Source of the DNA: Bacillota bacterium
GTDB taxonomy: Bacteria > Bacillota > UBA994
Length of the DNA stretch: 64,000 nt
NCBI GenBank assembly: GCA_009773495.1
Contig: WSXW01000008.1
Location: 64,050 to 128,049 of the forward strand
Direction: 5' to 3'
Below, piece after piece: positions 4,243 through 61,163 of the stretch. The first letter of the stretch is position 1. Every line of letters starts with the position of its first letter. The notes below the pieces were generated by a model. That model was given only the letters and a program-made list of their open reading frames with translations, did no database searches and was not told the origin of the DNA. A program made the translations under genes and the position numbers.

Positions 4243-4410
4243 TGTCCAGGCTGTAATCTACGCCCTCTTGATCATAGGGTCGATAGTGCCGGTAGAGATG
4301 CTGATTATTCCCTGGTACATCACAGCTGTAAAGTACGGCTGGACAGACAGCTACTGGGGCATTATGTTCCCCGGGCTGCTCACGGCCTTTGGCGTGTTCT
4401 TTGATGAAGG
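4243..4410 (+). repeat. degraded partial duplicate of the ABC permease gene (copy of about 2106-2152 joined to about 2434-2560, with internal deletion of about 280 bp and point differences)
   Basis: Near-identical strings to the 2059-2910 permease: attgtccaggctgtaatctacgccctcttgatcatagggtcgatagt, then gtgccggtaga[g/a]atgctgattattccctggtacatcacagctgtaaagtacggctggacagacagctactggggcattatgttccccgggctg. Confidence 0.8.
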
Positions 4411-18611: not shown

Positions 18612-18998
18612 TAGCTATAATTAGCAAAAGGGGTATCCGCTTAGCTCCACCTCACGGACAACCGTGCCACCAAAAGGCGACTATTGCGGTCAAAACTGGT
18701 TCAATCTCCCACTTTCGGTGGGGTAGTCGCGTTTTTAGGAACACACGCTCCACAGGAGGAACTAAACGGATGATCCCCTATTATTGCTATTGGGGCTGTC
18801 TTTAAGGTTCATCAACTATTTTGTTGTTGGCTAGCGGCGTACTGCTTACGGGCTTTATCCTTGAATTCTTACAGGTACGACCTACGGTCCGAAAATGCTT
18901 TTCGGTGATATTTCCCTGGGTATGCAGAGATTGCGGGTTATCGGGCTTTTTTTGCCTGGTTTTCGTGGAGGAATATTCTGGATGCTTCAGACAGAGAG

Positions 18999-19892: not shown

Positions 19893-19916
19893 TATGATAC
19901 CGGAGGGGTCTGAAAA

Positions 19917-20954
19917 ATGAGCATTAAGCTTTCTATTTGTATTCCTACTTACAACAGGTCGTCTTTTCTTACGTTTGCAGTAAATACAATAGGGCCGCAA
20001 TTGACAGACGGTGTTGAGATAGTGATTTCCGATAACGCTTCGTCTGATGACACTCAGGCTGTGGTCGGGGAACTGATGCAGCGATGGCCGGCGATCAGGT
20101 ATGTAAGGCAGGATCAAAATGTTGGCCTTGACCGTAATCTGCTTTATCTTGTAGAACAGGCCAGAGGCGAGTATTGCTGGTTTGTCAGTGATGACGATGG
20201 TTTTTGTGAGGGTGCTATCAGCACAATGCTTGGCGCTCTAGGCGATGGTTGTGATGTCTATATTTGCGGGACTAAAGGGCATTCCAGAGAAATGGCGTAT
20301 ATAGAAGACGACTTCCCTTTAAACGGCGATGGCAAGACTTTTGATCTTTCTGACCGGCGCCAGATGCTTGATTTTCTCAAATCTGCCAGAAGGCCTCCAT
20401 TTTCTTTCATTAGTGTGCTGTGTTTCAAGCGAGAAAAGTGGCTGTCGGTTCTGGACAAAAATGCTATGGTCGGGACTGTGTTTAATCATGTTTATTGTGT
20501 ATTTGCCATGGTTCAGAGCGGTCTTCTATTAAGATATGTCAATAAACCTTTGGTTATATTCAGAGCCGGCAACTGTGGATTTGGCAAAACTGGAATGGTC
20601 GAAAGATTTCTTGCTGATATAGGGGCATATATTCAAGTTGCAGAAAGATGTTTTGCACAAAAAAAAGATGTTCAAGAACTTCTCGTTTCCTTAGTTGCCC
20701 GTCAACATCCCATTTATAAATTGGCGTTTATGTTTTACCTTGCTAACTCCAAGCAAAAAGCACGGCTTAAGCAGGTTGTTAAGCGTGTTTATGGAAAGCG
20801 TGTGTATTACAGTAGCAGGTTTATGTCGCAGTTAGGCTCATTCTGGGTTATAATGTATTTTATAAGACAATGCGTTGTGTTGAAAAATGATGTTGAATTT
20901 GTTGAACTCTGGCGATCAGTTCGCGGCACTGCAAATAATCAAGGGTGGCATTGA
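19917..20954 (+). CDS. glycosyltransferase family 2
   Basis: LSICIPTYNRSSFL...IVISDNASSDDT. Confidence 0.8.
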   Translation: MSIKLSICIPTYNRSSFLTFAVNTIGPQLTDGVEIVISDNASSDDTQAVVGELMQRWPAIRYVRQDQNVGLDRNLLYLVEQARGEYCWFVSDDDGFCEGAISTMLGALGDGCDVYICGTKGHSREMAYIEDDFPLNGDGKTFDLSDRRQMLDFLKSARRPPFSFISVLCFKREKWLSVLDKNAMVGTVFNHVYCVFAMVQSGLLLRYVNKPLVIFRAGNCGFGKTGMVERFLADIGAYIQVAERCFAQKKDVQELLVSLVARQHPIYKLAFMFYLANSKQKARLKQVVKRVYGKRVYYSSRFMSQLGSFWVIMYFIRQCVVLKNDVEFVELWRSVRGTANNQGWH

Positions 20955-20978
20955 ACATAAAGAAAGAGGATAGGCAAT

Positions 20979-22367
20979 ATGGAGATTACATTAATTGGAT
21001 TTATTTTAATGCCTTTTGGTGTCCTGTTGTTTTTATTTAAACCGGGCTGGCTATTTTATTCATTTATATTTTTTATACCGTTTTTTGCCACTGCTGTCCT
21101 TAATGTGCAGAGCATTTCCTTTGGCGTTACTCCCGCACATTTTTTTGCCTTGCTCTGGGTTACAAGAAGGATTATTGATAATTTAACGGGGAAAGCTTTT
21201 TATCTCCATAAGAAAAGCAACGTTGTCCTTGGCTCATTGCTGTTGTTTCTGTTTGTTATTTCTCTGTCCCTGATAATGCCGGTTGTAATCGCAGGCGAAA
21301 CAGAGGTTTATAAAGGTAATCCTTTAATGCTTGCTCCTGTTGCTCATGAATTTACTTTTAGCAATGTTTCCGTATTTTTGTTTCTGGCGTTTGCTGTTCT
21401 GATGACGATATTTGTTTCTTTGGAAATAAATAGTCCAGAAAAATTTAAACGCTCCATAAAAGTCTTTTTAATATCAGCATTTACAGTAAGCATCTGGGGT
21501 TTCTTGCAATTGCTGACTCACTATGCCGGCCTACCTTATCCTGCTTTTCTGTTTAACAACAGCATCAGCGATGCTATTGTGTCAGGACCGATTGCTGAAG
21601 CGGAAGGAGCATCAAGGATCTTTTCCGTTACTCCGGAGCCCTCGGTGTTTGCCCGTTACTTGCTGGCGGGTTTACCTTTGGCTTTAATTCTGATGATAAA
21701 AAAGATAAAGGTTTTTAGCAGCGCTTTTATTTTACCTTGTTTTGTTTTTGCTTATATCTTGGCATTAATCCTCACCGTTTCTACCTCGGCCTACTTTGGT
21801 CTGGGTTTTATGGCCATAGCAGCATTTTTCTTTTTAAGAAGATATAAGGATTTAAGCCCTTTTTTAAGAATAGCTGCGATGTTTCTATTGGCTTTAGGGG
21901 CGGTTGTTTCTGTTAATCCGGAGATGTTTGATAATACTTTGCAAATGACTGTTTTTAAAGCACTGACTTTTTCAGGAATGGAAAGAATCTTTGCTTTCCA
22001 GGAGGCGTTAGGACTGTTTTCAGCATATCCTTTGCTTGGCGTTGGCTGGGGCAGCAATGCTTCATTTGACCTGATAAGTTATCTATTAGCAAATAGCGGC
22101 CTATTTGGCGCTCTTTGTTTTGCTTTGTTTGTGTTGTCAGCCTATAAGCACTTTCGTTGGTTACAAAAAAATAACAATATAGGATTTGAAACCAAAGCAT
22201 ATACAGACGGCATAGGTTTGAGTTTATTGACAGGTATATTTTTAAACTTAACAGGAGGACTTGACTTAGTGTTCTTACATCTTTGGTTTTTATTGGGGTT
22301 GATGCTTTCTTTGTCTAAAATTATAAGTCTGCAAACTACTAAAGATAGAGGTTACAATGAAATATAA
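20979..22367 (+). CDS. Wzy-like O-antigen polymerase/ligase-family integral membrane protein
   Basis: 462 aa with at least 10 TM helices and a central periplasmic loop, positioned between GT genes. Confidence 0.6.
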   Translation: MEITLIGFILMPFGVLLFLFKPGWLFYSFIFFIPFFATAVLNVQSISFGVTPAHFFALLWVTRRIIDNLTGKAFYLHKKSNVVLGSLLLFLFVISLSLIMPVVIAGETEVYKGNPLMLAPVAHEFTFSNVSVFLFLAFAVLMTIFVSLEINSPEKFKRSIKVFLISAFTVSIWGFLQLLTHYAGLPYPAFLFNNSISDAIVSGPIAEAEGASRIFSVTPEPSVFARYLLAGLPLALILMIKKIKVFSSAFILPCFVFAYILALILTVSTSAYFGLGFMAIAAFFFLRRYKDLSPFLRIAAMFLLALGAVVSVNPEMFDNTLQMTVFKALTFSGMERIFAFQEALGLFSAYPLLGVGWGSNASFDLISYLLANSGLFGALCFALFVLSAYKHFRWLQKNNNIGFETKAYTDGIGLSLLTGIFLNLTGGLDLVFLHLWFLLGLMLSLSKIISLQTTKDRGYNEI

Positions 22368-23376
22368 GGTTGTTCTCATAACCGGGTCATATCCGCCTGA
22401 TACCTGTGGAGTAGGTGATTATACCGCATCACTTGTGGCCGCCTTGCAAAAATGTGGGACCAATGTTGAAGTTCTGCACAATCATAAATGGCATCTATCC
22501 TGTTTAAATCAGATTATTAAACATTTAAATTCTCTCAAACCTGATATTGTGCATATTCAATATCCAACAGTAGGTTATGGAAATAGTTTAACACCCCATA
22601 TATTAAGCCTTTTTAAAAACAAGGTAATTACGATACATGAAATCAGCCAAGCACATATTCTGCGCAGATTGTCGTTGTATTTTTTTTCCATGCGATCGGA
22701 ACACTTAATATTCACCAATCAGTTTGAACTTGATTATGCAAAAAGATGGGCGCCATGGATATCAAGACGCGCAAGTGTTATACCCGTTGGAAGCAGTATA
22801 CCAGCCGGTCACGCATCTAAACGAGATATTAAAGATATTATTTACTTTGGCTTGATAGGTCCCAAAAAAGGTCTCGATGATTTTTTGAGCCTAGCTACAT
22901 TAATTAAAAAGGAAAATCTGAATCTGCAGCTTCGCATCATAGGCTTGCCAAATCCAAAGTGGCCTGACTATCTTGAGTACATTTATAAGAAAGCCGGCAA
23001 TCTGCCTATATCACTGGAAATCGGTTTGCCAGAAAGAGATGTTGCTCAGTTACTATCACGTGCACAAATTGCTTATATGCCATTTCCTGACGGAGCGTCC
23101 GAGCGTCGGACATCATTAATGGCACTTTTGATTAATGGTGTAGCGACTATTACGACTTATGGGAAGCACACCCCTGAGAATTTTAAGAAGGCAGTTGCTT
23201 TTGCCCAATCTCCGGAGGATGCACTGGCGATAATTAAAAAACTCACTACTGATGCCCAGGAACGAGAAACCTTATCTATTAATGGAAAGCGGTGTGCTGA
23301 AAGTTATAGTTGGGATAATATTGCTCAGAAGCATATACAAATTTACGAAATATTTTTCTCGAAAAGTCTGAGATGA
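22357..23376 (+). CDS. glycosyltransferase (GT4/GT1-like)
   Basis: 339 aa with a GT-B pattern (Rossmann-like halves; FPDGASE). Confidence 0.65.
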   Translation: MKYKVVLITGSYPPDTCGVGDYTASLVAALQKCGTNVEVLHNHKWHLSCLNQIIKHLNSLKPDIVHIQYPTVGYGNSLTPHILSLFKNKVITIHEISQAHILRRLSLYFFSMRSEHLIFTNQFELDYAKRWAPWISRRASVIPVGSSIPAGHASKRDIKDIIYFGLIGPKKGLDDFLSLATLIKKENLNLQLRIIGLPNPKWPDYLEYIYKKAGNLPISLEIGLPERDVAQLLSRAQIAYMPFPDGASERRTSLMALLINGVATITTYGKHTPENFKKAVAFAQSPEDALAIIKKLTTDAQERETLSINGKRCAESYSWDNIAQKHIQIYEIFFSKSLR

Positions 23377-23411
23377 TTCATAATTAACATGTGAAAGGAT
23401 AGTCATAATAT

Positions 23412-24536
23412 ATGAAAGTTCTTCAGATATCCAAACTATATTTCCCTCATATCGGCGGCGTGGAGAAGGTTGTGCAGGACATCGCTGAAGGCTTGGCGAA
23501 TAAAGTCGATATGAATGCCCTTGTTTGTCAACCAAAAGGGAAAGGAAAAAGGGAAATTACTAATGGCATCAGGGTTATACGAGCAGGCAGCTTTGGAATT
23601 TATTTTTCTATGCCTGTTTCTTTAAGCTTTCCGTTCATATTAAAAAAAATAGGCAAAGAATTTGACATATTACATTTTCATATGCCGTTTCCTTTAGCCG
23701 ATTTATCTTATTTGTGGGCAAAGCCACAAGGGAAGGTCGTTGTTTGGTGGCATAGCGATATTGTGAAGCAAAGGAATTTGTTGAGAGTCTATAAGCCATT
23801 CATGATGCGATTCTTAAATAAAGCGCACAAAATCATTGTTGCTACACCTCGGCATATAGAAAGCTCCCCTTTCTTAAAAAATTTCAGAGATAAATGCGTA
23901 GTAATCCCTTTCGGAATAGATTTAACCCGATTCAGATTGAACGATAAGAACAGAGAAAAAATCATGAGTATTGGTGATATGTATGGCTCAAAAATAATCT
24001 TATTTGTTGGAAGGCTTATTTACTATAAGGGCGTGGAGTACCTTGTTGAGGCAATGAAGAAAGTTGACGCCAAATTGCTATTAGTTGGTGAGGGGCATTT
24101 AAAAGAGAGTTTAATCAACTTAGCAGATAAGATTGGGATTAGAGACAAGATTGTTTTTATAGGCAGGATTGATGACGAAGACCTCATTCATTATTATCAT
24201 GCCTGCAGTGTTTTTGTACTGCCTTCTATTGCCAACAGTGAGGCATTTGGGATTGTTCAGCTTGAAGCAATGGCATGTGGAAAGCCTGTAGTAAACACTG
24301 AGCTTCCTACCGGTGTTCCGTGGGTTAGTGTTCATGGAGAAACTGGTATCACGGTTCCTCCAAGAGACTCATCGGCATTGGCTGACGCTCTAAACGTTTT
24401 GCTCAACGATGCAGATTTGTGTGAGAAATATGGCCAAAATGCCCGAAAAAGAGTGGAAGAAGAATTTACGATGGAATTGATGATGGATAGAATTTTATCA
24501 GTTTATAAGCAGGTGACAGATAATAAAACTAAGTGA
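23412..24536 (+). CDS. glycosyltransferase family 4
   Basis: 374 aa GT4 protein (LFVGRLIYYKGVEYL, LPSIANSEAFGIVQLEAMACGKPVV). Confidence 0.8.
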   Translation: MKVLQISKLYFPHIGGVEKVVQDIAEGLANKVDMNALVCQPKGKGKREITNGIRVIRAGSFGIYFSMPVSLSFPFILKKIGKEFDILHFHMPFPLADLSYLWAKPQGKVVVWWHSDIVKQRNLLRVYKPFMMRFLNKAHKIIVATPRHIESSPFLKNFRDKCVVIPFGIDLTRFRLNDKNREKIMSIGDMYGSKIILFVGRLIYYKGVEYLVEAMKKVDAKLLLVGEGHLKESLINLADKIGIRDKIVFIGRIDDEDLIHYYHACSVFVLPSIANSEAFGIVQLEAMACGKPVVNTELPTGVPWVSVHGETGITVPPRDSSALADALNVLLNDADLCEKYGQNARKRVEEEFTMELMMDRILSVYKQVTDNKTK

Positions 24537-24547
24537 GGTGTTATATC

Positions 24548-25606
24548 ATGAAAAAGGCATTAATCACAGGCATCAGGGGTCAGGACGGAGCATATCTGGC
24601 TCAATTATTGCTTGAGAAGGGCTGCGAGGTTTACGGTGCTGACAGAAGAAGCGGGGATTCTGGCAACTGGAGATTGAAGGAACTTGGCATCGAAAAAGAT
24701 GTAAAGATTGTTTACATGGATTTATTAGAGCTTACTAATATTATGCGGGTAATTGAAAAAATAAAGCCGGATGAGGTCTATAACCTTGCAGCTCAGAGCT
24801 TTGTGCAGACAGCCTTTGAACAGCCGATCCTCACATCCGATATTGATGCAATCGGGGTTTTAAGACTCCTTGAGACAATAAGGACAATAAAACCTGACGC
24901 TAAATTTTATCAGGCTTCTTCAAGCGAAATGTTTGGAAGGGTTCAGGAAACACCTCAAACTGAAAAAACACCATTTTATCCAAGAAGTCCTTATGGAGTA
25001 TCTAAGCTTTTCGGGCATTGGATAACCGTCAATTACAGAGAATCTTATAATATGTTTGCATGTTCTGGAATTTTATTTAATCACGAGTCCCCATTAAGAG
25101 GCTTAGAGTTTGTAACGAGAAAGATTACATATGGTATAGCAAGGATAAAATATGGTCTTCGTGACAAAATTGTTCTTGGCAATTTAGATTCTAAAAGGGA
25201 CTGGGGATTTGCAAAGGAATATGTAGAAGGAATGTGGCTGATGCTACAGCAGGAAGGGCCAGATGATTATGTTTTAGCAACGAACGAAGCGCACAGTGTA
25301 AAAGAGTTTGTTGAGAATGCCTTCAAAGCTGCTGAATACAGTATTGCATGGGAAGGTGAAGGCGTAAATACAAAATGTATAGATAAAAAAACAGGAAAGA
25401 TTTTAGTAGAGATTTCACCTGAATTTTACAGACCAGCAGAGGTGGATATACTAATCGGCGACCCATCAAAGGCAAAAGAAAAGCTCGGTTGGAAGCCTGT
25501 AACTAAATTTGCGGATTTAGTAGGAATTATGGTTGAGGCTGACTTGGAAAAAGTTGGTATGGAAAAAAGGACAGGCTATTTTAATGAAACTGGTGGGAAT
25601 AGATAG
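24548..25606 (+). CDS. gmd: GDP-mannose 4,6-dehydratase
   Basis: MKKALITGIRGQDGAYLAQLLLEKG and ASSSEMFG motifs. RBS gaggtg. The ORF track starts 15 nt earlier. Confidence 0.9.
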   Translation: MKKALITGIRGQDGAYLAQLLLEKGCEVYGADRRSGDSGNWRLKELGIEKDVKIVYMDLLELTNIMRVIEKIKPDEVYNLAAQSFVQTAFEQPILTSDIDAIGVLRLLETIRTIKPDAKFYQASSSEMFGRVQETPQTEKTPFYPRSPYGVSKLFGHWITVNYRESYNMFACSGILFNHESPLRGLEFVTRKITYGIARIKYGLRDKIVLGNLDSKRDWGFAKEYVEGMWLMLQQEGPDDYVLATNEAHSVKEFVENAFKAAEYSIAWEGEGVNTKCIDKKTGKILVEISPEFYRPAEVDILIGDPSKAKEKLGWKPVTKFADLVGIMVEADLEKVGMEKRTGYFNETGGNR

Positions 25607-25700
25607 GGATTGCACAGTCCGGCCGGGGGAAGCGCACTCCTAGGCTTAGTGCGGAGGGCGGTAATGAAACGAAGGCTGGCAGCAAGTTAGGAGGCAAAAA

Positions 25701-27146
25701 ATGACGATCATAGCCGTGATCATGGCCGGTGGGCGGGGAGAACGCCTGTGGCCGAAGAGTACAGCCAACAGGCCTAAACAATTCCAGAGCTTTGCAGGGG
25801 GGAAAACTCTCCTGCAGGAAGCGGCTGAGCGTATCAGCCACTTGGTGCCTTGGAGCCAAGTCTACGTTGTTACCGGGCGGCAGTACTCGGCAACGGTTTA
25901 CAGCCAGCTCCCTAGCGTCCCAAAGGAAAATGTAATCTTGGAGCCAGTAGGTCGTGATACCGCTCCTTGCATCGGTTATGCCGCGCTTCACGTAGAAAAG
26001 AAGTTTCCTGGGGCTACGATGTTAGTCTTGCCCGCCGACCACTATGTTGGTGATGACGAAGAATTTGTAGATATCCTCAAAGCAGCCACAGAAGCGGCCC
26101 AAAGGGATCACGCCCTTGTCACCGTAGGGCTTAAGCCCACTCGACCGGAAACAGGTTACGGATATATTCAAGTGGGTCTGGAGACATGCCGTTTTGGACA
26201 TCGACTGCTGCATCGGGTTAGCCGCTTTGTCGAGAAGCCGCCTTTCGAACGGGCAGTGCGGCTGTACCAGGACGGGCAACACCTTTGGAATAGTGGGATG
26301 TTTATCTGGCGTGTGGAGGTGATCCGTTCAGCGATTGCCCTGTACCTGCCGGAACTTCACCAAGGGCTTGAGGAGATTAAAGTTGCAGTCGGTACACCAG
26401 CTGAACAGGCTGTGGTGGAACAGCTCTTTCCCCGTTTGCCCAAGGTCTCTATCGACTTCGGGGTAATGGAGAAGGCGGACCGGGTGCTTGTGGTTCCGGC
26501 ATCGTTCCCCTGGGACGATCTAGGCAACTGGGTCGCCCTTGACCGCGCCTCTTCCCGGGGTGATGCTGGCAATAACCTGTCGGGCCAAGTCGGCACCATT
26601 GATACCCATAACTCTATCATCCATGATGACGACGGAATTACTGTGACGGTCGGTGTTAAGGATTTAATTATTGTGCGTTCGGGTGGGTCTCTGCTGGTCT
26701 GTGACAAGGCTCGGGCGCAGGATGTGAAGAAGGCTGCGGCCTTGGCCGACGAACTGGGAGGAGACCCAGACTACCCGGTGGACTACCGGATAGTCGAGAA
26801 ACCATGGGGCCGGGAAATTTGGTGGGGCGTCACCGAGGCCTACGTTGGCAAGATTCTGGAGGTCAGGGCCGGGCACAGCCTCAGCCTCCAATACCATCGC
26901 CAGAAGCTGGAGACTATGTTTTTTCAGAAGGGCCGAGGTACGCTCATCCTTGACGAAAAGGAGCTGACGATTCAGCCAGGGATGGCGGTGACGATCCGGC
27001 CCGGGACTGTACACAAGATTGTTGCCGAGAGCGATCTTACCATCCTAGAGGTATCGACTACGGAGCTGGATGATGTGGTGAGGTTGCAGGATACGTATGG
27101 ACGGGCGCAGACCGAAGTGCCGGTAACGCCCGAACCGCAAAAATAA
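25701..27146 (+). CDS. manC: mannose-1-phosphate guanylyltransferase / mannose-6-phosphate isomerase (bifunctional, C-terminal cupin)
   Basis: 481 aa with an N-terminal nucleotidyltransferase (IMAGGRGERLWP) and a C-terminal cupin. RBS taggagg. Confidence 0.85.
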   Translation: MTIIAVIMAGGRGERLWPKSTANRPKQFQSFAGGKTLLQEAAERISHLVPWSQVYVVTGRQYSATVYSQLPSVPKENVILEPVGRDTAPCIGYAALHVEKKFPGATMLVLPADHYVGDDEEFVDILKAATEAAQRDHALVTVGLKPTRPETGYGYIQVGLETCRFGHRLLHRVSRFVEKPPFERAVRLYQDGQHLWNSGMFIWRVEVIRSAIALYLPELHQGLEEIKVAVGTPAEQAVVEQLFPRLPKVSIDFGVMEKADRVLVVPASFPWDDLGNWVALDRASSRGDAGNNLSGQVGTIDTHNSIIHDDDGITVTVGVKDLIIVRSGGSLLVCDKARAQDVKKAAALADELGGDPDYPVDYRIVEKPWGREIWWGVTEAYVGKILEVRAGHSLSLQYHRQKLETMFFQKGRGTLILDEKELTIQPGMAVTIRPGTVHKIVAESDLTILEVSTTELDDVVRLQDTYGRAQTEVPVTPEPQK

Positions 27147-27285
27147 GCAGTGAAGCAAAGCGGTGGGGACGGAGCCTATTGCTTTCAGGGCGGTCGCTAA
27201 TCTGTTATATGAAATGCAGTTCGTTTTAGCCTAACAAGCATTTATAACATACATGTTCAATTATGATATTCCTCAAATACTTTCA

Positions 27286-28533
27286 TCAAGCAGTCTCCAT
27301 TTTCACGTTTGGCAAGACGAGAAGAGCAACAAGAAAAGCACACACGATACCAGCAGCTCCCACAATAAATACTAGTCTATGCGATTGTAGCCATAAGAAT
27401 CCGACCAAAATTGGTACAAGAGTCGCATTTATCCCGTCAATAGATGAAAGCAAACCCAAGACAAACTGAGCGTTGCTTTCAGGGAAACAATCAAAGAAAT
27501 ATGAGAATGATATAGGGGCAAATACATCCTTTAATCCAGTAATAAGATAAGCTATAACAAAGAATACAGTGCTGCCCGTGAACGCAAAAGTCAAGGCAGG
27601 TATTAAGTCTATGAAAATATCAATAAGATATATCAGTTTCCTACTCCTCATATCAAAGAAGTACCCCAGTACCAGGCCCAAGATAGCGTTCACAATCGTT
27701 GTAAATCCCACCAAAGTCAACAGTCTTGAAACGTCAAATCCAAGCTGAAGGCCGAGTAACGGTAAGAAACGTACCGAGATGTTATAAATAGAGGTAAAAA
27801 CGTTTATGAGAACAAACGCCCAGAATACTCTCTTCTTCAAAACAGCACTCAGTGTAAGCTCATCGCTTCCATTTTTCTTAACGTCATCTGACATAGTCTT
27901 GTCTGAATGAGTAGCATTATTATTTTCAGTTATCTGATCGGATAAAATGCTCTTTGTTCTCATAATAAAAATGACTAAGCAAGTTAGAACGAAGAGGGAA
28001 GAAAAAATGAAGTACAACTTCAAAATACTAAATCTCGTAGTCAAGAATCCACCAGCTAATAGACCAACCGAAATAGCACCAAAAAGAAAAAAATCACGCA
28101 GTGCAAAATATTTGCTCCGATTCCCACTTTCTATTACTGTGTTAATTTTATTTCCTATTGAGTAATTAAAGATTACCCTTGATAGTAAGATCATATAACA
28201 AAACACAAAAACAAGCCAAGCAGGTAGCAAATCCAAACGTAGCATTATCGCACCTAAGAATCCTATGAGTGAACCTAATGTTCCAAGTGCATATGCGCCG
28301 AACTTTTTTATTGAAAGGTAAGCAATTATCGTAGGAGCAAAAATAAAAGTAAATGAAACGATTGATAAAAAGATCCCGTAGGTCGCTTCAGACAATCCGT
28401 GATAGGCAATAACTAGAGGAACTGCTTTTTCGAGAGGCCCGCTTGCTAGGAAGAATAGCGCATACAACAAAAAGAAGTACTTATATCTTTTGCCTGCAAA
28501 TACTTTGTATGAATTTATGAAGTTTGTTAACAC
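27286..28533 (-). CDS. MFS transporter
   Basis: 415 aa with 12 predicted TM helices. Strongly AT-rich (about 33% GC) relative to flanks. Confidence 0.7.
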   Translation of the reverse strand: MLTNFINSYKVFAGKRYKYFFLLYALFFLASGPLEKAVPLVIAYHGLSEATYGIFLSIVSFTFIFAPTIIAYLSIKKFGAYALGTLGSLIGFLGAIMLRLDLLPAWLVFVFCYMILLSRVIFNYSIGNKINTVIESGNRSKYFALRDFFLFGAISVGLLAGGFLTTRFSILKLYFIFSSLFVLTCLVIFIMRTKSILSDQITENNNATHSDKTMSDDVKKNGSDELTLSAVLKKRVFWAFVLINVFTSIYNISVRFLPLLGLQLGFDVSRLLTLVGFTTIVNAILGLVLGYFFDMRSRKLIYLIDIFIDLIPALTFAFTGSTVFFVIAYLITGLKDVFAPISFSYFFDCFPESNAQFVLGLLSSIDGINATLVPILVGFLWLQSHRLVFIVGAAGIVCAFLVALLVLPNVKMETA

Positions 28534-28649
28534 ATTTCCCCCTGCCTTTTTTACAGTATATTACAATAGCTCGTCAAAGTTTCTGTTCTGTGCTCTGGCA
28601 ATGTTCCTGAGCCTAGCTCTAACAGAGGCTGCCATATTCTTGGGGTTGT

Positions 28650-29252
28650 TCATAATAGCACCTCGAAGTAGGTTTTTACTGGGCCGTAAATACGCATCTT
28701 CTTAGCATATTCAGTGAGGAGCTTGATGTTTATCTGTGGTTTGCCAACGTAATTGCCCAGAATCTCCTTCACTAGATCGAGTCCTATCCTATTTCTATGA
28801 ACAATCGCGTCGCAGACGGTTTTCTCAAGGTCGTATACCATGACCACTGAGTTTCCTTCTTGAGCGGATGTAATACCCGTGTTGTAGCGCACATCATTAT
28901 ATTTCACGACCTTGATTTTGGGATAGGGTGGAAGGGATGGTATTCGCATATGTCGAGGGACTGCAAGGGTATGTTGCTTCGGAATATAGGTGCTGAGCTC
29001 CCAATAAGCAAACGCTGAGTAGAGGCAGAAGACACCGGCTGGGACAATCTGAGCTACTTCTGCCATTTCGCTATATTCGATACTGCTTTCTACCCATCGA
29101 TAGAGGCCTCGCTTAATACGTTGTATTTCACCATCAATGATTAGATTACTTATGTCATAGTCGCTAAGTCCGCATTCTTTGAGAGCGCTGGTGGGCAAAT
29201 GAACTATTTTATTCCTAAGGGCTCTGATTGCACGTAGTTTCTCGTCGTTCAC
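28650..29252 (-). CDS. AbiEi-like antitoxin/transcriptional regulator (COG5340 family), orphan (no AbiEii partner)
   Basis: 200 aa. GVFCLYSAFAYWELSTYIPKQHTLAVPR matches the AbiEi consensus. An AbiEii gene would be expected at lower coordinates, where the MFS gene lies instead. Confidence 0.6.
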   Translation of the reverse strand: MNDEKLRAIRALRNKIVHLPTSALKECGLSDYDISNLIIDGEIQRIKRGLYRWVESSIEYSEMAEVAQIVPAGVFCLYSAFAYWELSTYIPKQHTLAVPRHMRIPSLPPYPKIKVVKYNDVRYNTGITSAQEGNSVVMVYDLEKTVCDAIVHRNRIGLDLVKEILGNYVGKPQINIKLLTEYAKKMRIYGPVKTYFEVLL

Positions 29253-29649
29253 TAGCCATCTTTCCTTTCTATTGATACGGTCATTATATCCGTCAATCTG
29301 CGGTCAGGCAATACAGTCAGCATTTGGCCACTTTGGGGGAGCGGAAACAATCAATGACCGCTGTGATCGAGAATTAAGGTGTCAAACAAGGTGTCAAGCT
29401 CTCTTCCAAAAACGTCGGCGGCACGGATGCTATTGACAGCTATCCACTCTATATGGCGATGTTTCTATAGGTCAGAGGCGTATGGTCATGTAGCACGAGG
29501 TTTCTGGGCGTGTACAACCTTGACTAAGCGTGCCCACGGATGTTAGTGTAAAGGTAATAATTGGTGAGCCCGAGAGGAGGAAAGTCGATGAGATTACGTG
29601 AGTTGCTCACCGTGGCGAGGACTCCTTTCGCAACGATGAGCTTATCTAG

Positions 29650-29901
29650 GTGTATGTAGTCCACAACCTGCAAATATTGGGCGAGGCAGCATACAAGCTC
29701 CCCTTGGAATACAAGGAGGCTAATCCAGACATACCGTGGCATAGTTTGGTGGGTATGCGGCACATCTTGGTACACAATTATTTCCATGTTGACCTAGATA
29801 TTGTTTGGGCTGTGGTAACCAACGAACTACCAAGCCTAAAGGCTCAGGTCCAACGTTTGCTTAATCATTTGAAGAGCAGACTGGCAGACGTGTCTCAGTA
29901 A
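29650..29901 (+). pseudogene. HepT/DUF86 nucleotidyltransferase-substrate-binding toxin fragment (N-terminally truncated)
   Basis: MRHILVHNYFHVDLDIVWAVV matches the HepT R-x4-H-x-Y motif region. Begins directly after an in-frame stop; no MntA partner recognised. Confidence 0.5.
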
Positions 29902-30132
29902 GTTTGTGGGAGAAGGCAAATGGCAACCTACACTGCAAGCCTGTGCGCGTGGGAATGTATCTGACATAATAGTGACAACCCCGACAAAATGTCGGGGTTG
30001 TCGACATATTTCGACTATTTTCGCGGAATATGTCTTGTATAATTGGTGATACCGCTTGCCCCTAGGGGGCTGAGCAGGATTTTTGGGCTTTGTCGGAGAA
30101 TATTTCGGATATTAAGATTAGGAGGCGTCGAG

Positions 30133-44238: not shown

Positions 44239-44367
44239 GGCGCTACCATTAGGTTGGCTTTCACTTACTTTTGCGTAGCCTTACAAGGAATGCGCTCCTT
44301 AACATAGAATAGGTAATAGCTAGACATGCCATGATATTTCTAGAGTTGTCAGAAGGGAGATGGAATA

Positions 44368-45036
44368 GTGAAGGGTAAAATAAGGATAGCACAGGAAGCT
44401 CTCGCCGGACTCAAAGACGGAATGACTGTTATGATCGGTGGGTTCTTGGGGGTAGGTGCGCCAGAGGGGCTAGTGACAGAGGTGTTGGAGAAGGGCACTA
44501 CGGATCTCACCGTAATCGGAAATGATACTGGCTTCCCGGATAAGGGTATCGGCCGTTTAATCGTCGCCAAGAAGATTAAAAAGGTCATTGCCTCGCACGT
44601 CGGCACTAACCCCGAGACGGGGCGGCAGATGAATGCTGGGGAGACAGAGGTAGTCTTGGCACCACAGGGTACGTTGGCGGAGCAGGTTCGCGCTGCTGGT
44701 GCCGGCCTTGGGGGGATACTCACGCCAACCGGCGTAGGCACAGTAATAGAAGAGGGAAAACAGAAGATTACTGTAGACGGTAAGGAATACTTACTAGAAC
44801 TACCTATACATGCGGACTATGCACTTATTAGGGCTTATAAGGCTGACGAAAAAGGCAACCTGGTATATCGCCGTTCCGCACGCAATTTTAACCCTCTTAT
44901 GGCTATGGCCGCTAAGGTAGTTGTGGCTGAGGTGGAGCAAATTGTAGCGGTAGGAGAGATAGATCCTGACGAAGTCGTAACCCCAGGGCTTTTTGTGACC
45001 TACCTCGTGAAAAAGGGGGGCTCTGGCTGTGAGTAA
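44368..45036 (+). CDS. 3-oxoacid CoA-transferase subunit A (AtoD/ScoA-like)
   Basis: 222 aa family-I CoA-transferase alpha subunit with typical glycine-rich N-terminal region. Confidence 0.8.
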
Positions 45037-45688
45037 GGATATTAAGCGCGAGCGCATCGCCAGGCGCGTGGCCATGGAGCTAAGCGATGGCATGGTCGTC
45101 AACCTCGGTATTGGTATACCGACCTTTGTGGCTAATTTTGTGCCTGAGGGTATCGATGTAATGTTCCAGTCGGAGAACGGTTTTGTGGGCTTAGGCCCGG
45201 CCCCGAGCCCGGATAACATTGACCCAGATATCACTAACGCCGGAGCCCAACCGGTAACCATACTCCCGGGCGGAGCCTGTTTTGACTCCGCTACTTCGTT
45301 TGCAATTATCCGCGGTGGGCACGTGGATTTAACGGTATTAGGGGCACTAGAGGTAGACGAAAAGGGTAACCTCGCTAACTGGATGGTGCCAGGCAAGATT
45401 GTCCCAGGTATGGGCGGAGCAATGGATTTGACCGTAGGAGCCAAGCGGGTAATCATTGCTATGGAACACACTGCTAAAGGTAACCCTAAAATCCTGCCGT
45501 TGTGCACGCTGCCCCTCACAGCGAAGGAGCAAGTGGATCTGATTGTTACGGATATGGCGGTGATTGAGGTGATTCCGGCGGGATTGGTCTTGAAAGAGAT
45601 TGCTCCGGATACCACGGTGGAAGAGGTTGTCGCTGCCACAGCTGCGAAGCTGATAGTGTCGGCTCATGTAGCTGTCATGGCTGTTTAG
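45029..45688 (+). CDS. 3-oxoacid CoA-transferase subunit B (AtoA/ScoB-like)
   Basis: 219 aa beta subunit with the catalytic-Glu region motif ENG ([11 protein letters not shown]). Overlaps the subunit A stop. Confidence 0.8.
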
Positions 45689-46400: not shown

Positions 46401-46406
46401 ACTTTA

Positions 46407-46428
46407 GTTCTCAGTTCTCAGTGCCCAG
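46407..46428 (+). repeat. left inverted repeat of IVS-like cassette 2 (gttctcagttctcagtgcccag)
   Basis: 19/22 match to the reverse complement of 46851-46873. Contains an internal tandem agttctc repeat. Confidence 0.6.
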
Positions 46429-46447
46429 AAAAGGGGTGTGATCTCAT

Positions 46448-46801
46448 ATGCCCAAAGGATTTGTGCAGTTGAAGGTGTGGCAGCAGGTCAGGATAATGGC
46501 TAAGGAAGTATATAACTTGACAGAACAGTTCCCCAATAGGGAACAGTACTCTTTGGCATAGCAGATGCGTAGAGCCGCTGTATCAGTGATGTCAAACATC
46601 GCTGAAGGGCAAGGTAGGTTTACACGGAAGGACTTCCGCCACTTTCTTTTTATGTCCCGAGGTTCTCTACTGGAGTTGCACAGTTGTCTTATTCTTTCTA
46701 TCGACTTGGGTTATCTTGACCGAGACCCTGTATTCGCTTGTTACAAACACTGCAACCAGATTGGGCGTATGCTAAACGGCCTTATTGCATCATTAGTATA
46801 G
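46448..46801 (+). pseudogene. four-helix-bundle protein (Avd / 23S rRNA IVS protein family) interrupted by in-frame TAG at 46559-46561
   Basis: MPKGFVQLKVWQQV...EQYSLA*QMRRAAVSVMSNIAEGQGR...GSLLEL. The stop replaces the conserved Ser of the ...G L T/S S Q... motif. Confidence 0.6.
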
Positions 46802-46850
46802 AACGAAAGACGGGGATGCAGCAGAAGCCTAGGACTACGAGTGCTGGGAT

Positions 46851-46873
46851 CCGAGCACCGAGAACTGAGAACC
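46851..46873 (+). repeat. right inverted repeat of IVS-like cassette 2
   Basis: ccgagcaccgagaactgagaacc. Preceded by a small palindrome gtgctgggatccgagcac. Confidence 0.6.
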
Positions 46874-46894
46874 AACCAGATAAGGGGTGAGATT

Positions 46895-48015: not shown

Positions 48016-48537
48016 ATGTTTAAGAAGATTCTTGTTTTTACAGTGTTGTTCTGTCTGATAGCGCAGGGTGCGCTAGCTTCATCCGGGCAGGCTCTGACAG
48101 AAGAAGGCCTCGCAACCCTCAAGGCTAAACTCCTCGAACGCCACGAGGCCCTAGTAGCCAAGGCAGAAGAGGTCCTTGCTAATAAGGACAACCTGCTAGA
48201 GTACATTAAGACTAAGGCTGATGAGTCGCAGGCTAAGGCTCTGGAGCTAGCGCAACAAAGGGCGGCTGAGGCTACAGATCAGGAACTCGCGGCCAAGTGG
48301 CTCAACAAGGCCAACGCTAAGCAAGAGTATAGGACAGCTCACATTGAGAAGAACGCCGACAAGATGGCGGAGAACATGCTTAAGCGCGCCGAAGCAGTTT
48401 TAGAAAATGCGGCCGAGATTCGTACTAAAATCGAAGCGGCAGAGAATTTAGAGGAGCTCCGCGAATTGCGCCCTGACCGTGGTATTAAACGCCCCATGAT
48501 GCGTCTTAAGGGTATCCTAAAGAGGTTCGGGAGATAA
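48016..48537 (+). CDS. secreted alpha-helical/coiled-coil hypothetical protein
   Basis: Signal peptide MFKKILVFTVLFCLIAQGALA followed by A/E/K-rich heptad-like sequence. RBS aaaggag. Confidence 0.5.
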   Translation: MFKKILVFTVLFCLIAQGALASSGQALTEEGLATLKAKLLERHEALVAKAEEVLANKDNLLEYIKTKADESQAKALELAQQRAAEATDQELAAKWLNKANAKQEYRTAHIEKNADKMAENMLKRAEAVLENAAEIRTKIEAAENLEELRELRPDRGIKRPMMRLKGILKRFGR

Positions 48538-48543
48538 AGAGTA

Positions 48544-48700
48544 GCCCGATTGTAGGGGCATCATGCGCCCGATTGTAGGGGCACAACATGTTGTGCCCGC
48601 CAGGCGTTGTAGGGTTGCGCCCAGGGCACGATGCCGTGCCCCTACACCAAACCCCGATTGTAGGGGCACAACATGTTGTGCCCTGGGTCGAACTCCCACC
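48544..48700 (+). repeat. array of palindromic repeat elements (unit about CCCGATTGTAGGGGCACAACATGTTGTGCCC; 2 full + 1 truncated + degenerate/inverted partial copies)
   Basis: Copies at 48544-48560, 48567-48598 and 48652-48690. The perfect 20-bp palindrome gggcacaacatgttgtgccc occurs twice. An inverted partial copy gtgcccctacaccaa lies at about 48635. Confidence 0.75.
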
Positions 48701-48719
48701 CCTAGAGAGAGGGATTATA

Positions 48720-49396
48720 TGCGTAGTATTCACGTGGTGGAGGATGAGCAAAACGTACGCGAGCTTTTGGGCCGTTACCTTGAGCACGAGGGCTACAAGG
48801 TCTATTTGCATGCCAGCGGCGAAGGCGTGCTTGAAGCCTTGCAGGTCAATGGTGCTGACTTAATAGTCTTAGATATTATGCTGCCGGGTATTGATGGCCT
48901 AGAGCTATGCAAACGCATCCGGGCCAAATACGAGACGCCGATTATTTTTGTTTCTGCTCGCAGCGAGGAATTTGACCGAATCCTAGGGATTGAGCTGGGC
49001 GGCGATGATTACTTGGTCAAACCCTTTAGCCCCCGCGAGCTCTTGGCGCGCATACGGGCTATCTTTCGCCGCGTAGACCAACAGCAGTCAGTGGCGGTGA
49101 GCGGGCTCAAACCCTTTAAGGATCTCACTATTGATTCAGCCGCAAGGCTAGTGCGCTGTGGACAGTATACTCTAGATTTCACAAACAAAGAGTTTGAACT
49201 CCTGCTCTACCTGATAGATAATGTCGGCCGCGCTTTTACACGTGAGCAAATGGTTACTGCGGTGTGGGGCTATGCCTATGTAGGCGATAGCCGTTCGGTA
49301 GATGATCTAATTCGCCGCATCCGCAAGAAATTAGACGGCGTATCGACTATCGAGATTAAGACTGTATGGGGCTATGGGTATCGGATTGATGGGTGA
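48720..49396 (+). CDS. OmpR-family response regulator (receiver + winged-helix)
   Basis: MRSIHVVEDEQNVRELL...LDIMLPGIDGLELC...winged-helix C-terminus. RBS gagagaggg. The ORF track extension from 48563 reads through the repeats. Confidence 0.85.
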
Positions 49397-50729
49397 TTTT
49401 AAGCTCGCTCGTCGCATCTCCTGGTACAATACGGTATTTGCCCTGTTTGCTTGCTTGTTGCTGGCCTTTAGCTCTAACTACTTGCTCAAGCACCACGTCA
49501 TTCGTACCACACAAGATGAGCTCTACGAGGCGGCTACGTTGCTGGCGCAAACCATCGATATGTCCGACCCAATACAAAACGCCATTAGGATCCGCACTGC
49601 TAGTAGGTCTGTGGGCATGGATATAGTGCTGCTCAATACATCCGGACGGGTAGTAGCCAGCACCTTGCGCCATTTTCAGCCCGGGGGACTGCTTGATGTC
49701 CCTCTGAAAGACTCCTCGCGTTTGAGCCGTAGTGAACGTTCGCGTTTACAGGATAGCCAGCACGTGTTTGCCCTTGCCGCGGTACAGCGGGGGGGGACCA
49801 AGGCGGGGTATATACTAGCCGTAACGCAGCTGCAGGACCTTGCTGCCATCACTCGCGGCATCATGTCTATTTTGGTGCCTGTTTCGGTAGTAGTAGCGCT
49901 CATTAGCTCGATGCTTGGAGGCATTTGGACTAGGAAGATTTCGTTACCGCTGCAGCAGCTTAACCAGGCGGCACATGGTATTGCGGCCGGAGATTTTCAG
50001 GCTGTACCTACAATCTCGGGTGACGACGAAATAGCTGAGCTCAGCGCCTCGTTGCGTTCCATGGCTGGGCAGCTGCAGGCCGGTGAGCAAGCTCAGCGAC
50101 AATTTGTGCAGAATGCTTCGCATGAGCTTAAGACACCGCTCATGAATATCCAGGGTTACGCCGAAGCTCTGCGCGACGGCGTCTATGTAGGCAATGAAGC
50201 TACCCACTGCTTAGAGGTAATTGGGCGAGAGACAGTGCGCATGCGCAAATTAGTCGATGACATGATTTACCTCTCCAAACTGACCTCTAAGGCCGAGGCC
50301 TTCAACGAAGAAAGTATTAGGGTGGGTGACTTAGTTCAGGCTATGGAGGAGTCAACGCGTGGCATACTGCTGGATGCAAATCTTGTGCTAGAGTGCGGGC
50401 AGATGCCAGACATTACAATCACAGGCGACTTTGACAAGCTGGTGCGTTCGTTTACTAACTTGATCGCTAATGGCGCAAGATACGCTAAGTCCACAATCCG
50501 TCTAGCTGTGGCGAGGGAAGCAAACGCACTTTTGTTCGAAGTGCGTGATGACGGCCCAGGAATCGAACCGCAGTTAATGGAAAAAGTCTTTGATCGCTTT
50601 ACTAAAGGTAGCAGCGGCCAAACAGGCCTAGGTCTGGCTATCGTCAAGGCCATTGTTGAACGCCACGGCGGCAGCGTGAGTGTGCGTAATGAAAACGGTG
50701 CGGTGTTCGAAGTAAGGCTACCAACCTAA
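49374..50729 (+). CDS. sensor histidine kinase (2 TM, HAMP, HisKA, HATPase_c)
   Basis: H-box (ASHELKTPL) and G-boxes (DDGPGI, GLGLAIVK). Overlaps the response regulator stop. Confidence 0.8.
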   Translation: MGIGLMGDFKLARRISWYNTVFALFACLLLAFSSNYLLKHHVIRTTQDELYEAATLLAQTIDMSDPIQNAIRIRTASRSVGMDIVLLNTSGRVVASTLRHFQPGGLLDVPLKDSSRLSRSERSRLQDSQHVFALAAVQRGGTKAGYILAVTQLQDLAAITRGIMSILVPVSVVVALISSMLGGIWTRKISLPLQQLNQAAHGIAAGDFQAVPTISGDDEIAELSASLRSMAGQLQAGEQAQRQFVQNASHELKTPLMNIQGYAEALRDGVYVGNEATHCLEVIGRETVRMRKLVDDMIYLSKLTSKAEAFNEESIRVGDLVQAMEESTRGILLDANLVLECGQMPDITITGDFDKLVRSFTNLIANGARYAKSTIRLAVAREANALLFEVRDDGPGIEPQLMEKVFDRFTKGSSGQTGLGLAIVKAIVERHGGSVSVRNENGAVFEVRLPT

Positions 50730-58974: not shown

Positions 58975-59083
58975 GAGTCACTGATCAGAGCCCCGATTTA
59001 CACTGATAAGTGGTCTATCATACAAGGGGCACAACTGCGTTGCCCTCCATTCATATCCACATTTCTAACTGAGGTGTTTACCA

Positions 59084-60227: not shown

Positions 60228-61163
60228 ATGTCCCTTCATTCTTTATGGCAGTGGGGTACTGCGGAGCTTGCAGCTGCGGGCCTTGAGGACTCCCGGTGGC
60301 AAGCAGAGCTACTCCTGCGGGGTATTGTCGAGGTGACTCGGGCTAAGTTTATGACCTACCCGGAGTTACAAGTAACGCATCTCGACACTGAGCGCTTTCG
60401 GGACGCAATCCGTAGGCGCTCTTTAGGTATGCCCGTGCAGTATATCCTTGGCAAGCAGGAGTTTTATGGGCGGGAGTTTATAGTGACCCCCGATGTATTA
60501 ATCCCCAGACCTGAGACGGAGGTGCTGGTGGAGGAAGTGTTGAGTAAGATGTTGCCTTTGTGTAGGGGCACGACACTGTCGTGCCCCTACACAAAGGCAA
60601 GCGGTTCTCAGTTTCCAGATCGCTTACGCCTCCTCGACCTGTGCACAGGTTCTGGTTGCATCGGTCTAACCCTGGCTGCAGAACTACCGCAGGCTAGGGT
60701 GGTGGCGACGGATATTTCGCTGCAGGCGTTAGGGGTAGCTAAACAGAATGCACATAAAGTAGGTGTGGCCAACCGGGTGGAGTTTAAGCAAGGGGACTTG
60801 TGCTCTGCTCTACAAGGTGACATTTTTGATGTTATAGTCTCTAATCCGCCGTATATCGAAACGGCTGCTATACCTACACTAAGTAGGGATGTCCAGAATG
60901 AACCTATTGGAGCCTTAGACGGCGGGGCAGATGGGTTAGAGTTTTATAGGCGTATTGCAGATGGGCTCGGGCAACACCTGGCCCCTGGGGGTCTCGTGGC
61001 GGTAGAAATCGGCCACGGACAGGGCCAAGATGTAATGCAGTTATTCGCCCAGGCTGGGCTTATCGACATAACCCTAATCCTCGACCTAGCAGGCAAAGAA
61101 CGCGTCGTGATGGGGAAAATGCCGAAGGCAGAAGGAGCTTGTACTTTCCCCGTATCAGTGTAA
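60228..61163 (+). CDS. prmC: release factor glutamine N5-methyltransferase PrmC/HemK, with in-frame palindromic-element insertion in the inter-domain linker
   Basis: NPPY motif (VSNPPYIE) and SAM motif LDLCTGSGCIG. The linker is about 17 aa longer than in typical orthologs. Confidence 0.85.
   Translation: MSLHSLWQWGTAELAAAGLEDSRWQAELLLRGIVEVTRAKFMTYPELQVTHLDTERFRDAIRRRSLGMPVQYILGKQEFYGREFIVTPDVLIPRPETEVLVEEVLSKMLPLCRGTTLSCPYTKASGSQFPDRLRLLDLCTGSGCIGLTLAAELPQARVVATDISLQALGVAKQNAHKVGVANRVEFKQGDLCSALQGDIFDVIVSNPPYIETAAIPTLSRDVQNEPIGALDGGADGLEFYRRIADGLGQHLAPGGLVAVEIGHGQGQDVMQLFAQAGLIDITLILDLAGKERVVMGKMPKAEGACTFPVSV
60555..60597 (+). repeat. perfect 43-bp palindrome (two 21-nt arms around a central C) of the TGTAGGGGCAC...GTGCCCCTACA family, in-frame inside prmC
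   Basis: cctttgtgtaggggcacgaca-c-tgtcgtgcccctacacaaagg encodes ...LPLCRGTTLSCPYTKA... Related copies occur at 48544-48700. Confidence 0.8.

Follow-up and report, generated by a model that had tools for sequence, protein, structure and literature searches.

In work on the E. coli transposase TnpA_REP and on the IS200/IS605 elements, recognition of a hairpin together with its GTAG tag, and cleavage, have been described (cited in PMC6006769 and PMC3479197). According to the available text of three surveys, the elements closest to the locus described here are the following: (i) the GTAG REPs, 24 families from Proteobacteria, Cyanobacteria, Chloroflexi and the PVC group, with stems of 6-13 bp, often located just downstream of the upstream ORF, which form head-head and tail-tail dimers and clusters reiterated together with flanking DNA, and which also occur as intragenic copies (Di Nocera et al., 2013; PMC3733652); (ii) the REPs of RAYT/TnpA_REP subclass 2.4, found in "Cyanobacteria, Bacteroidetes and various phyla", which are G+C-rich stem-loops of 20-40 bp, include a "canonical long" form whose stem has three G-C pairs at its base and a "double-foot" form, GT[AG]G...C[TC]AC, and which are also inserted in tnpA_REP (Quentin et al., 2018; PMC6006769); and (iii) group 4, present in 17 bacterial classes, whose flanking 16-mers amount to about 14 per replicon (Bertels et al., 2017; PMC5581495). 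In the available text of these three papers, the term Firmicutes has no occurrences.

The window (the whole 64-kb stretch of DNA that was analysed, from a Bacillota MAG) contains an array of palindromic repeats directly ahead of a two-component operon. Very probably, these repeats are grouped, BIME-like, GTAG-tagged REPs of the RAYT/TnpA_REP subclass 2.4 (Bertels group 4) type, the subclass being assigned to the RAYTs from their motifs and from the REP inside their genes, not from phylogeny. An earlier sequence-only reading had offered a MITE- or REP-like pile-up as one option, and this option is supported: the GTAG-tagged REP recurs in prmC, in relatives and in many phyla, as well as beside RAYT genes.

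The locus has in common with the GTAG super-family the tag, the dimers, the clusters that include flanking sequence, the post-ORF position between co-directional genes and the in-frame intragenic copies. With the subclass 2.4 REPs it shares a 5' GTAG at the hairpin foot, three G-C pairs as the base of the stem and a double-foot copy, located in prmC. Furthermore, the identical core flanks, or sits in frame within, RAYT genes with NH[LIV]H / WQ / YIxNNP motifs, and its host range is wide and patchy. Unlike in the reports on subclass 2.4, the host is a Bacillota MAG. The array also resembles REPINs (Bertels and Rainey, 2011; PMC3116915) and the BIMEs of E. coli in its inverted doublet (48620-48687) and alternating orientation, but the doublet with its spacer is not repeated elsewhere in the sequences compared, and the copy number appears far below that of Pseudomonas or E. 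coli. Finally, the prmC palindrome is reminiscent of the Rickettsia palindromic elements, as it is an in-frame insert within a housekeeping protein, at a variable loop, whereas sequence family and host are unrelated and a single intragenic copy was seen. As for the sequence itself, GGGGCA and GGGCAC are absent from the main text of PMC3733652 (the family consensus sequences are in its figure), and a full-text literature search for GTAGGGGCAC returned only unrelated primer sequences.

Genomic Setting of the Array

The array lies between the first two of the following genes:

48016-48537, plus strand: upstream gene of 173 aa, with a hydrophobic N-terminal segment
48719-49396, plus strand: OmpR-type response regulator (Response_reg and Trans_reg_C), with a Shine-Dalgarno-like AGAGAGGG upstream
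49374-50729, plus strand: sensor histidine kinase, partner of the regulator (HAMP, HisKA and HATPase_c)

A Pfam search with the product of the upstream gene gave no match, and its orthologues carry DUF5667; the prediction of a secreted coiled-coil protein is plausible. Both genes that flank the array are on the plus strand. The array begins 7 nt past the upstream stop codon (48537), and 35 nt separate its end from the regulator ATG (48719), with about 20 nt left to AGAGAGGG, the distance to the ribosome-binding site that the sequence-only reading had given. On the plus strand between 47800 and 48900, neither a sigma-70-like promoter nor a terminator-like site was detected; there is no T-run after any array hairpin, the sequence that directly follows the hairpins being GCCAGG or TGGGTC. 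An Rfam search of the array returned sub-threshold matches to miRNA-like hairpins and nothing else.

The true start of the response regulator is the ATG at 48719. A longer ORF, from 48563, passes in frame through the REP units and adds 52 codons at the N-terminus. This extension is probably spurious, since the 85-nt deletion found in other strains (see below) would break the frame.

Structure of the Array

A complete unit consists of GTAG followed by a G+C-rich hairpin, GGGCAC-N6-8-GTGCCC. The array is made up of the following parts:

48544-48560, plus strand: unit a, truncated REP, with the GCCCGATT flank, GTAG at 48552-48555 and a stem cut short after 5 nt (GGGCA)
48567-48598, plus strand: unit b, complete REP, with the GCCCGATT flank, GTAG at 48575-48578 and the palindrome GGGCACAACATGTTGTGCCC at 48579-48598
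48607-48622, plus strand: degenerate REP-like unit TTGTAGGGTTGCGCCC, within the spacer that separates units b and c
48624-48645, minus strand: unit c, inverted REP, reading GTAG GGGCAC GGCATC GTGCCC on the minus strand
48652-48683, plus strand: unit d, complete REP, the same as unit b over 31 nt from 48653
48620-48687, no strand assigned: long REPIN-like hairpin of units c and d, with outer stem CCCAGGGCAC / GTGCCCTGGG and inner stem GTGCCCCTACA / TGTAGGGGCAC

Three direct copies, two of them extended to a perfect palindrome, had been noticed from the letters alone, together with a degenerate and an inverted copy, and all of these were recovered. According to both the sequence and a repeat finder, GCCCGATTGTAGGGGCA is located at 48544-48560 and 48567-48583, and CCCCGATTGTAGGGGCA at 48652-48668, giving start-to-start distances of 23 and 85 nt. 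The identical 31-mer CCCGATTGTAGGGGCACAACATGTTGTGCCC occurs twice, 85 nt apart (48568-48598 and 48653-48683), and its last 20 nt are the perfect palindrome GGGCACAACATGTTGTGCCC. The degenerate copy corresponds to TTGTAGGGTTGCGCCC and the inverted one to unit c. Likewise, the view that the array is not CRISPR-like holds: the units are irregularly spaced and include an inverted and a truncated one. A chance origin is excluded by the counts in the window: GTAGGGGCA occurs 6 times against 0.63 expected (0/100 shuffles), the array 16-mer has 3 exact occurrences and the 20-nt palindrome GGGCACAACATGTTGTGCCC has 2, against 0.00 expected.

Units b(+) and c(-), with GTAG tags on the outer side, constitute what Di Nocera et al. 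(2013) call a head-head dimer; the pair c(-) and d(+), with its tags on the inner side, is a tail-tail dimer in their terms. The b-c dimer carries 11-nt inverted termini. In units b, c and d, as well as in the prmC copy, GTAG abuts the foot of the stem, which opens with three G-C pairs. The predicted DNA hairpins of single units reach -8.7 kcal/mol (unit b) and -9.2 kcal/mol (unit c; z -4.0), while the stretch 48616-48691, which contains the c-d hairpin, folds at -27.4 kcal/mol (z -7.1); the c-d stem reappears in the RNA fold. The 196-nt array region folds much more stably than its shuffled versions (z = -6.0 as DNA and z = -4.5 as RNA).

The same reading had put forward, as its other option, an operator array in which the OmpR-type regulator autoregulates its operon through TGTAGGGGCAC half-sites. 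This is very improbable, in spite of the position immediately upstream of the ribosome-binding site of the regulator and the presence of direct repeats. OmpR-family regulators bind half-sites that are directly repeated in tandem at intervals of about one helical turn, and spacings of 23 and 85 nt do not fit such an arrangement. Further evidence against operators comes from the strains, the relatives and the wider family considered below.

Other Copies in the Window

Apart from the array, the window contains one further canonical REP locus and one degenerate locus:

60552-60600, no strand assigned: second REP locus, a 49-nt perfect palindrome in frame in prmC, encoding LPLCRGTTLSCPYTKA
59014-59045, no strand assigned: degenerate REP-like hairpin GGGGCACAACTGCGTTGCCC, in the strain-variable spacer upstream of prfA, with a similar unit in the relative L330

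The core of the prmC palindrome is a double-foot REP, GTAGGGGCACGACA C TGTCGTGCCCCTAC, of the form GTAG...CTAC, and its DNA fold reaches -29.9 kcal/mol (z -10.9). At the protein level, it corresponds to 16 additional residues, free of stop codons, in a variable loop of PrmC. Typical PrmC proteins carry nothing at this site, and four states can be listed: (i) no insert, as in those typical proteins; (ii) one double-foot REP, as in the window; (iii) a head-head REP dimer with a 44-nt insert, as in L328 (PrmC 78% identical); and (iv) in-frame tandem heptamers without a REP, as in L330 (PrmC 81% identical).

A further ~7 kb from the same strain (L332) contain no REP copy, which leaves two canonical REP loci in about 71 kb. 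This low density fits the approximately 14 copies per replicon reported for group 4.

Elsewhere in the window, the repeats at 2109-2546 and 4243-4401 were considered as a candidate diversity-generating retroelement and rejected: when aligned, they turn out to be an ABC permease gene that is partly duplicated, and not a template/variable-repeat pair.

Length Polymorphism Among Strains

The regulator is encoded in identical form by seven public contigs, which match the window at 99.7-100% identity. They differ in the following segment:

48599-48683 (equivalently 48568-48652), no strand assigned: 85-nt segment, from the alignment, with BLAST break points at 48598 and 48653

The exact ends of this segment are ambiguous because a 31-nt direct repeat, itself a REP unit, borders it, leaving no distinct target-site duplication of the kind that flanks a classical MITE. 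Exactly 85 nt are missing in L001, L002, L004 (GCA_018333435.1), L006 and L007, five contigs from five different samples which are 99.7-99.95% identical to the window; they are present in the window and in L005, and L003 breaks inside the repeat. If the 31-nt repeat is called A, the long allele reads A-B-A and the short allele A. The indel co-segregates with a SNP located at -3 relative to the ATG (T in the long allele, C in the short one), and the outgroup, with no REP at the array site, carries the C. The spacer upstream of prfA also differs between strains. The absence of part of the array from five near-identical strain contigs is one more argument against operators.

A collapsed assembly is an unlikely source of the short allele: the SNP co-segregates with it, and two of the short contigs bear k141-style names, taken to indicate a 141-nt k-mer, far above the 31-nt repeat, if the prefix gives the k-mer size. 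The simplest route from the long to the short allele is a single deletion between the 31-nt repeats, and the difference could also have arisen through insertion of a REP dimer beside an existing REP. In the window and the fetched contigs that were compared, the 54-nt middle of the segment was found at the array locus only; hence, the segment is unlike a dispersed REPIN unit in its behaviour.

The polymorphism bears on the possibility that the repeats are relics, i.e., decaying REPs with no active transposase, in which all recent change, the 85-nt difference included, would be deletion or duplication arising when the 31-nt repeats recombine or slip, with the hairpins assisting. The borders of the indel coincide exactly with the direct repeat, one deletion explains A-B-A versus A, and the array includes a truncated unit (a) as well as a degenerate one. 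Besides, a CCCGATT flank common to the three direct copies lies outside the family consensus, which points to local duplication rather than to three independent insertions, and tblastn found no RAYT gene in the window or in the contigs of the strain and its relatives. This possibility deserves some credence, yet it is the less likely one: the SNP of the long allele is derived relative to the relative L207, which is weakly compatible with a recent gain, and the non-orthologous copies in close relatives, together with the variable prmC site, imply insertions within the lineage.

Relic repeats and GTAG-tagged REPs of the subclass 2.4 type, the preferred reading, differ solely in whether transposition is still active.

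The Orthologous Operons of Relatives

The closest orthologous operons are those of L207 (kinase 90% identical) and L208 (kinase 75% identical). The spacers upstream of their regulators contain no REP. Instead of the array, both share (i) a promoter-like TGTRGTAATATRTAAGT box; and (ii) a hairpin, GTGAGGG..ACCTCAC, with a T-rich tract behind it, right before the ribosome-binding site. The window has neither the box nor the hairpin leader, and its alignment with L207 and L208 upstream of the regulator is limited to the last ~25 nt before the ATG. Judging from this comparison, the array occupies the place that the promoter-like box and hairpin leader hold in the relatives. With the box absent, it may be read-through from the upstream gene, past the REP hairpins, that the operon relies on.

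Both relatives do carry a REP directly after the kinase stop codon (GTAGGGGCACGGCATTGCCGTGCCC in L207 and GTAGGGGCGCAATATATTGCGCCC in L208), a site where the window has none. More generally, REP copies are located at non-orthologous intergenic sites in L207, L208, L328 and L330. The differing REP content at several sites indicates a fast turnover of REPs in this lineage. An operator array is at odds with these observations as well, given that the motif is missing upstream of the orthologous regulators and present after the kinase gene. The unit does occur elsewhere, and the region is not the conserved native promoter of the regulator: on both counts, this is the opposite of what the sequence-only reading had named as evidence against itself.

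Another explanation is that the array is an exapted RNA element, whose hairpins are kept to stabilise the upstream mRNA or to damp read-through or translation of the regulator-kinase pair. The array is placed between co-directional genes, 7 nt past a stop codon, the typical position of transcribed REPs (PMC3733652); its RNA fold is strong; and read-through is plausible in view of the missing box and leader. Nonetheless, exaptation is unlikely: no T-run follows the hairpins and no terminator-like site is found on the plus strand, while the lack of conservation in relatives and the strain-variable length argue against purifying selection on one structure.

Spread of the Family and Covariation of the Hairpin

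The same REP core was found far beyond the lineage, in three scans whose counts of stretches are lower bounds and not copy numbers. In viral contigs, the pattern TGTAGGGGCAC-N4-12-GTGCCC occurs in at least 80 stretches; the inner part is 8 nt long in 61/89 of the matches listed, which would not come from chance. In genome contigs, the stem variants of the window itself occur in at least 119 stretches. Hosts among the matches listed include Nostoc, Calothrix and Tolypothrix, many Chloroflexota, Acidobacteriota, Gemmatimonadota, Nitrospirae, Thermodesulfobacteria, Thermoleophilia, Bacteroidota, Armatimonadota, Chitinivibrionales and a deltaproteobacterium; the source genome of the window is not among these matches. 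In metagenomes, the CGATT-prefixed REP pattern occurs in at least 119 stretches. Altogether, the core spans more than 10 phyla, a lower bound among the matches listed. A motif found in this many phyla, in phage-like contigs and inside coding regions such as prmC is not what would be expected of an operator for one regulator.

Across the copies of the collection, the outer arms do not change (GTAGGGGCAC and GTGCCC(CTAC)), and the inner 8-mers vary as palindromes (GGCATGCC, GATGCATC, GCCATGGC, GACATGTC and AACATGTT, among others). Among 51 unique variants of the inner 8-mer, positions 1 and 8 form a Watson-Crick pair in 49 and positions 2 and 7 in 44, the latter with four pair types. Fixed arms around inner parts that change as palindromes indicate that the hairpin itself is maintained.

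CCCGATT was also considered as a family feature and rejected: where the flank was left free, the copies have no conserved prefix. CGATT-prefixed copies are enriched for those embedded in RAYT genes (coding ...D-C-R-G-T...).

Association With RAYT Genes

When the ORFs near REP copies were clustered over 199 loci, the RAYT cluster was the sole informative one, leaving aside phage structural genes common to related contigs. The proteins of this family have a weak but specific match to Pfam Y1_Tnp (IS200-like) and the motifs NHLH, WQRN[FY]YEH and YI[LR][NA]NP, and their homologues carry the JGI name "REP element-mobilizing transposase RayT". In three genomes, the Y1_Tnp gene is bracketed by inverted REP copies: L130 (an Anaerolineae MAG) and L121 and L184 (two Nostoc genomes). 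Another 17 metagenome loci have a RAYT gene beside or around a REP, which brings the number to 20 loci in all.

The REP is also found inside the gene. In 92 RAYT homologues out of 119, it sits in frame in the loop directly after the HUH motif, where the encoded peptide is of the VGARHAVPL type in 67 and of the (C)RGTACRAPT type in 25. These two peptides are one REP DNA read in two frames, and thus it is the DNA, not the peptide, that is conserved there.

The array was also considered as a remnant of a RAYT gene, on account of the peptides VGAQHVVP and DCRGTTCCA. This was rejected: the peptides are translated REP, with no RAYT motifs flanking them.

Proposed Origin of the Array

For GTAG-tagged REPs of this type, the following sequence of events can be proposed, by extension from E. 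coli TnpA_REP and the IS200/IS605 elements. A RAYT would recognise REP hairpins on single-stranded DNA, cut them and rejoin them. This activity would seed new REP copies between genes and, occasionally, in frame in tolerant loops of proteins. Once formed, REP clusters would grow or shrink through recombination or replication slippage between repeats. Any effect on expression would be a by-product of hairpins in the intercistronic RNA and not of sequence-specific binding by a regulator.

Significance of the Finding

The kind of element, its association with RAYTs, the double-foot form, the in-frame intragenic copies and the copies inside the RAYT gene are already published. What the locus adds is (i) the extension of the GTAG REPs of group 4 / subclass 2.4 to an uncultured Bacillota lineage; (ii) a clean natural example of length polymorphism of a REP cluster among near-identical strains; and (iii) a REP cluster apparently standing where a two-component operon had its ancestral promoter and leader. 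To our knowledge, active REP/RAYT systems in Bacillota are apparently undocumented. One nearly invariant REP core is common to many phyla and to phage-like contigs.

For annotation, a false binding-site lead is removed, and REPs are found to create a probably spurious 52-codon extension of the regulator and 16 extra residues in PrmC.

A more speculative proposal is that the REP pile-up replaced the ancestral promoter and leader of the operon and that the 85-nt indel acts as a regulatory polymorphism, altering read-through or translation of the regulator. The ATG at 48563, with AGGGG ahead of it, shares its reading frame with the regulator in the long allele but not in the short one, where it gives an overlapping upstream ORF. 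Although improbable, such a role would mean that REP turnover rewires a signalling operon within a species. If the polymorphism does affect expression, the locus would be a modest and testable example of two-component regulation reshaped by selfish repeats.

REP Insertion and Heptamer Repeats Within Coding Sequence

Besides intergenic spacers, the GTAG-tagged palindromic hairpin repeat (REP) is found inside a gene of the window:

60552-60600: double-foot REP (GTAG...CTAC form) in a 49-nt perfect palindrome, lying in frame inside prmC (60228-61163, + strand)

This palindrome adds the residues LPLCRGTTLSCPYTKA to PrmC, at a loop flanked by RPETE and LDLCTGSG that is hypervariable across the lineage (0-50 extra residues). 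The same loop also carries an in-frame tandem heptamer, GTTCTCA / GTTCCCA, of which two copies are retained in the window (60603-60618). In a relative with an 81%-identical PrmC (L330, about 10320-10400), six repeats of the GTTCCCA type encode a 7-residue repeat (VPSSQLP VPSSQFP). These heptamers resemble the short tandem heptamer repeats of cyanobacteria.

The heptamer is also the building unit of inverted repeats around another gene:

46404-46429 and 46850-46875: 26-nt inverted repeats around the 23S_rRNA_IVP gene
46449-46802: 23S_rRNA_IVP family gene (four-helix-bundle), between the transaldolase gene and glpX

The Pfam match to 23S_rRNA_IVP (E = 3e-23) extends over the residues encoded by 46565-46798, and an in-frame TAG appears to truncate the window copy. 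The gene is intact (101 aa) in the near-identical strain contig L001, and two genes of this type are present in the corresponding neighborhood of L208, a relative with an orthologous regulator-kinase operon.

Differences Among Strains and Relatives

The spacer upstream of prfA is wholly different between the window (58990-59045) and L001 (18240-18340), strains which are elsewhere 99.8% identical: (i) in the window, it carries a degenerate REP-like hairpin, GGGGCACAACTGCGTTGCCC; and (ii) in L001, it carries a longer insert, CCCGATTCTACAAAAGGGGCGGGC...GCCTAGCGCCTAGCGCCTAACGCCCGCC. These strains also differ in gene content:

44364-45643: two CoA-transferase subunit genes, about 1.28 kb (Pfam CoA_trans, E = 7e-71 and 8e-46)

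This segment of about 1.28 kb is missing from strain contigs L001 and L002, in which only an 80-nt remnant is left. Its loss is a strain-level deletion tied to the clade with the short allele, i.e., without 85 nt of the REP array.

Upstream of the orthologous regulator, the spacer of another relative, L207, is occupied by another kind of repeat:

L207 971-1147: MITE-like insert, about 177 nt, in the spacer 5' of the orthologous regulator

The termini of the insert are imperfect inverted repeats of 21 nt (ATTAAAGAAATTCAACGGGAT / ATCCCGTTTGAGTTCTTTCAT), and it contains four copies of GGGAT, three of ATCCC and three of the 9-nt tandem unit TCGTGTTAA; this spacer, therefore, gathers small repeats that differ between species. 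L207 (1174-1256) and L208 (5236-5334) have in common a promoter-like TGTRGTAATATRTAAGT box and, immediately 5' of the regulator ribosome-binding site, a hairpin resembling a terminator (GTGAGGG..ACCTCAC, with a T-rich tract after it). This element, a possible leader or attenuator, has been lost from the window.

REP Core in RAYT Genes and Phage-Like Contigs

The REP is found in frame behind the HUH motif in 92 of the 119 homologues of the REP-associated Y1 transposase, RAYT (P0144-P0263; loci L121 and L184 from Nostoc, L130 from an Anaerolineae MAG). It is read in two frames, VGARHAVPL or CRGTACRAPT, with tandem reiteration in some homologues. The embedding of REPs in RAYT genes was previously described for subclass 2.4 (Quentin et al., 2018; PMC6006769). 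In IMG/VR phage-like contigs (L008-L087), the REP core is present in intergenic spacers between structural genes (for instance, L060, 8466-8490 and 9124-9148), and such contigs may have carried it from one phylum to another.

Other Features of the Window

An ABC sugar-permease gene has a 159-nt partial duplicate (97-100% identical) 2 kb downstream of the intact copy (2109-2546, 4243-4401); a diversity-generating retroelement, considered for this pair, was rejected in favor of partial duplication. The two ORFs that separate them (3096-3973) resemble, by eye only, fragments of AAA_14/DUF4143 ATPases, a family annotated elsewhere on these contigs. The stretch at about 18000-30000, with a G+C content of 38-45% (vs. 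about 51% elsewhere) and a strongly positive GC skew, may be a foreign island.

Reading Frame of the Response Regulator

The REP array is open in the frame of the regulator, resulting in a 277-aa ORF (48563-49396) whose 52 N-terminal residues are REP-encoded. The identical-protein look-up for the regulator did not return the 151-kb contig recorded for the identical kinase and PrmC and, in consequence, the regulator may have a different annotated start there, perhaps the long one. The REP-extended ORF of the regulator is a hazard for annotation.
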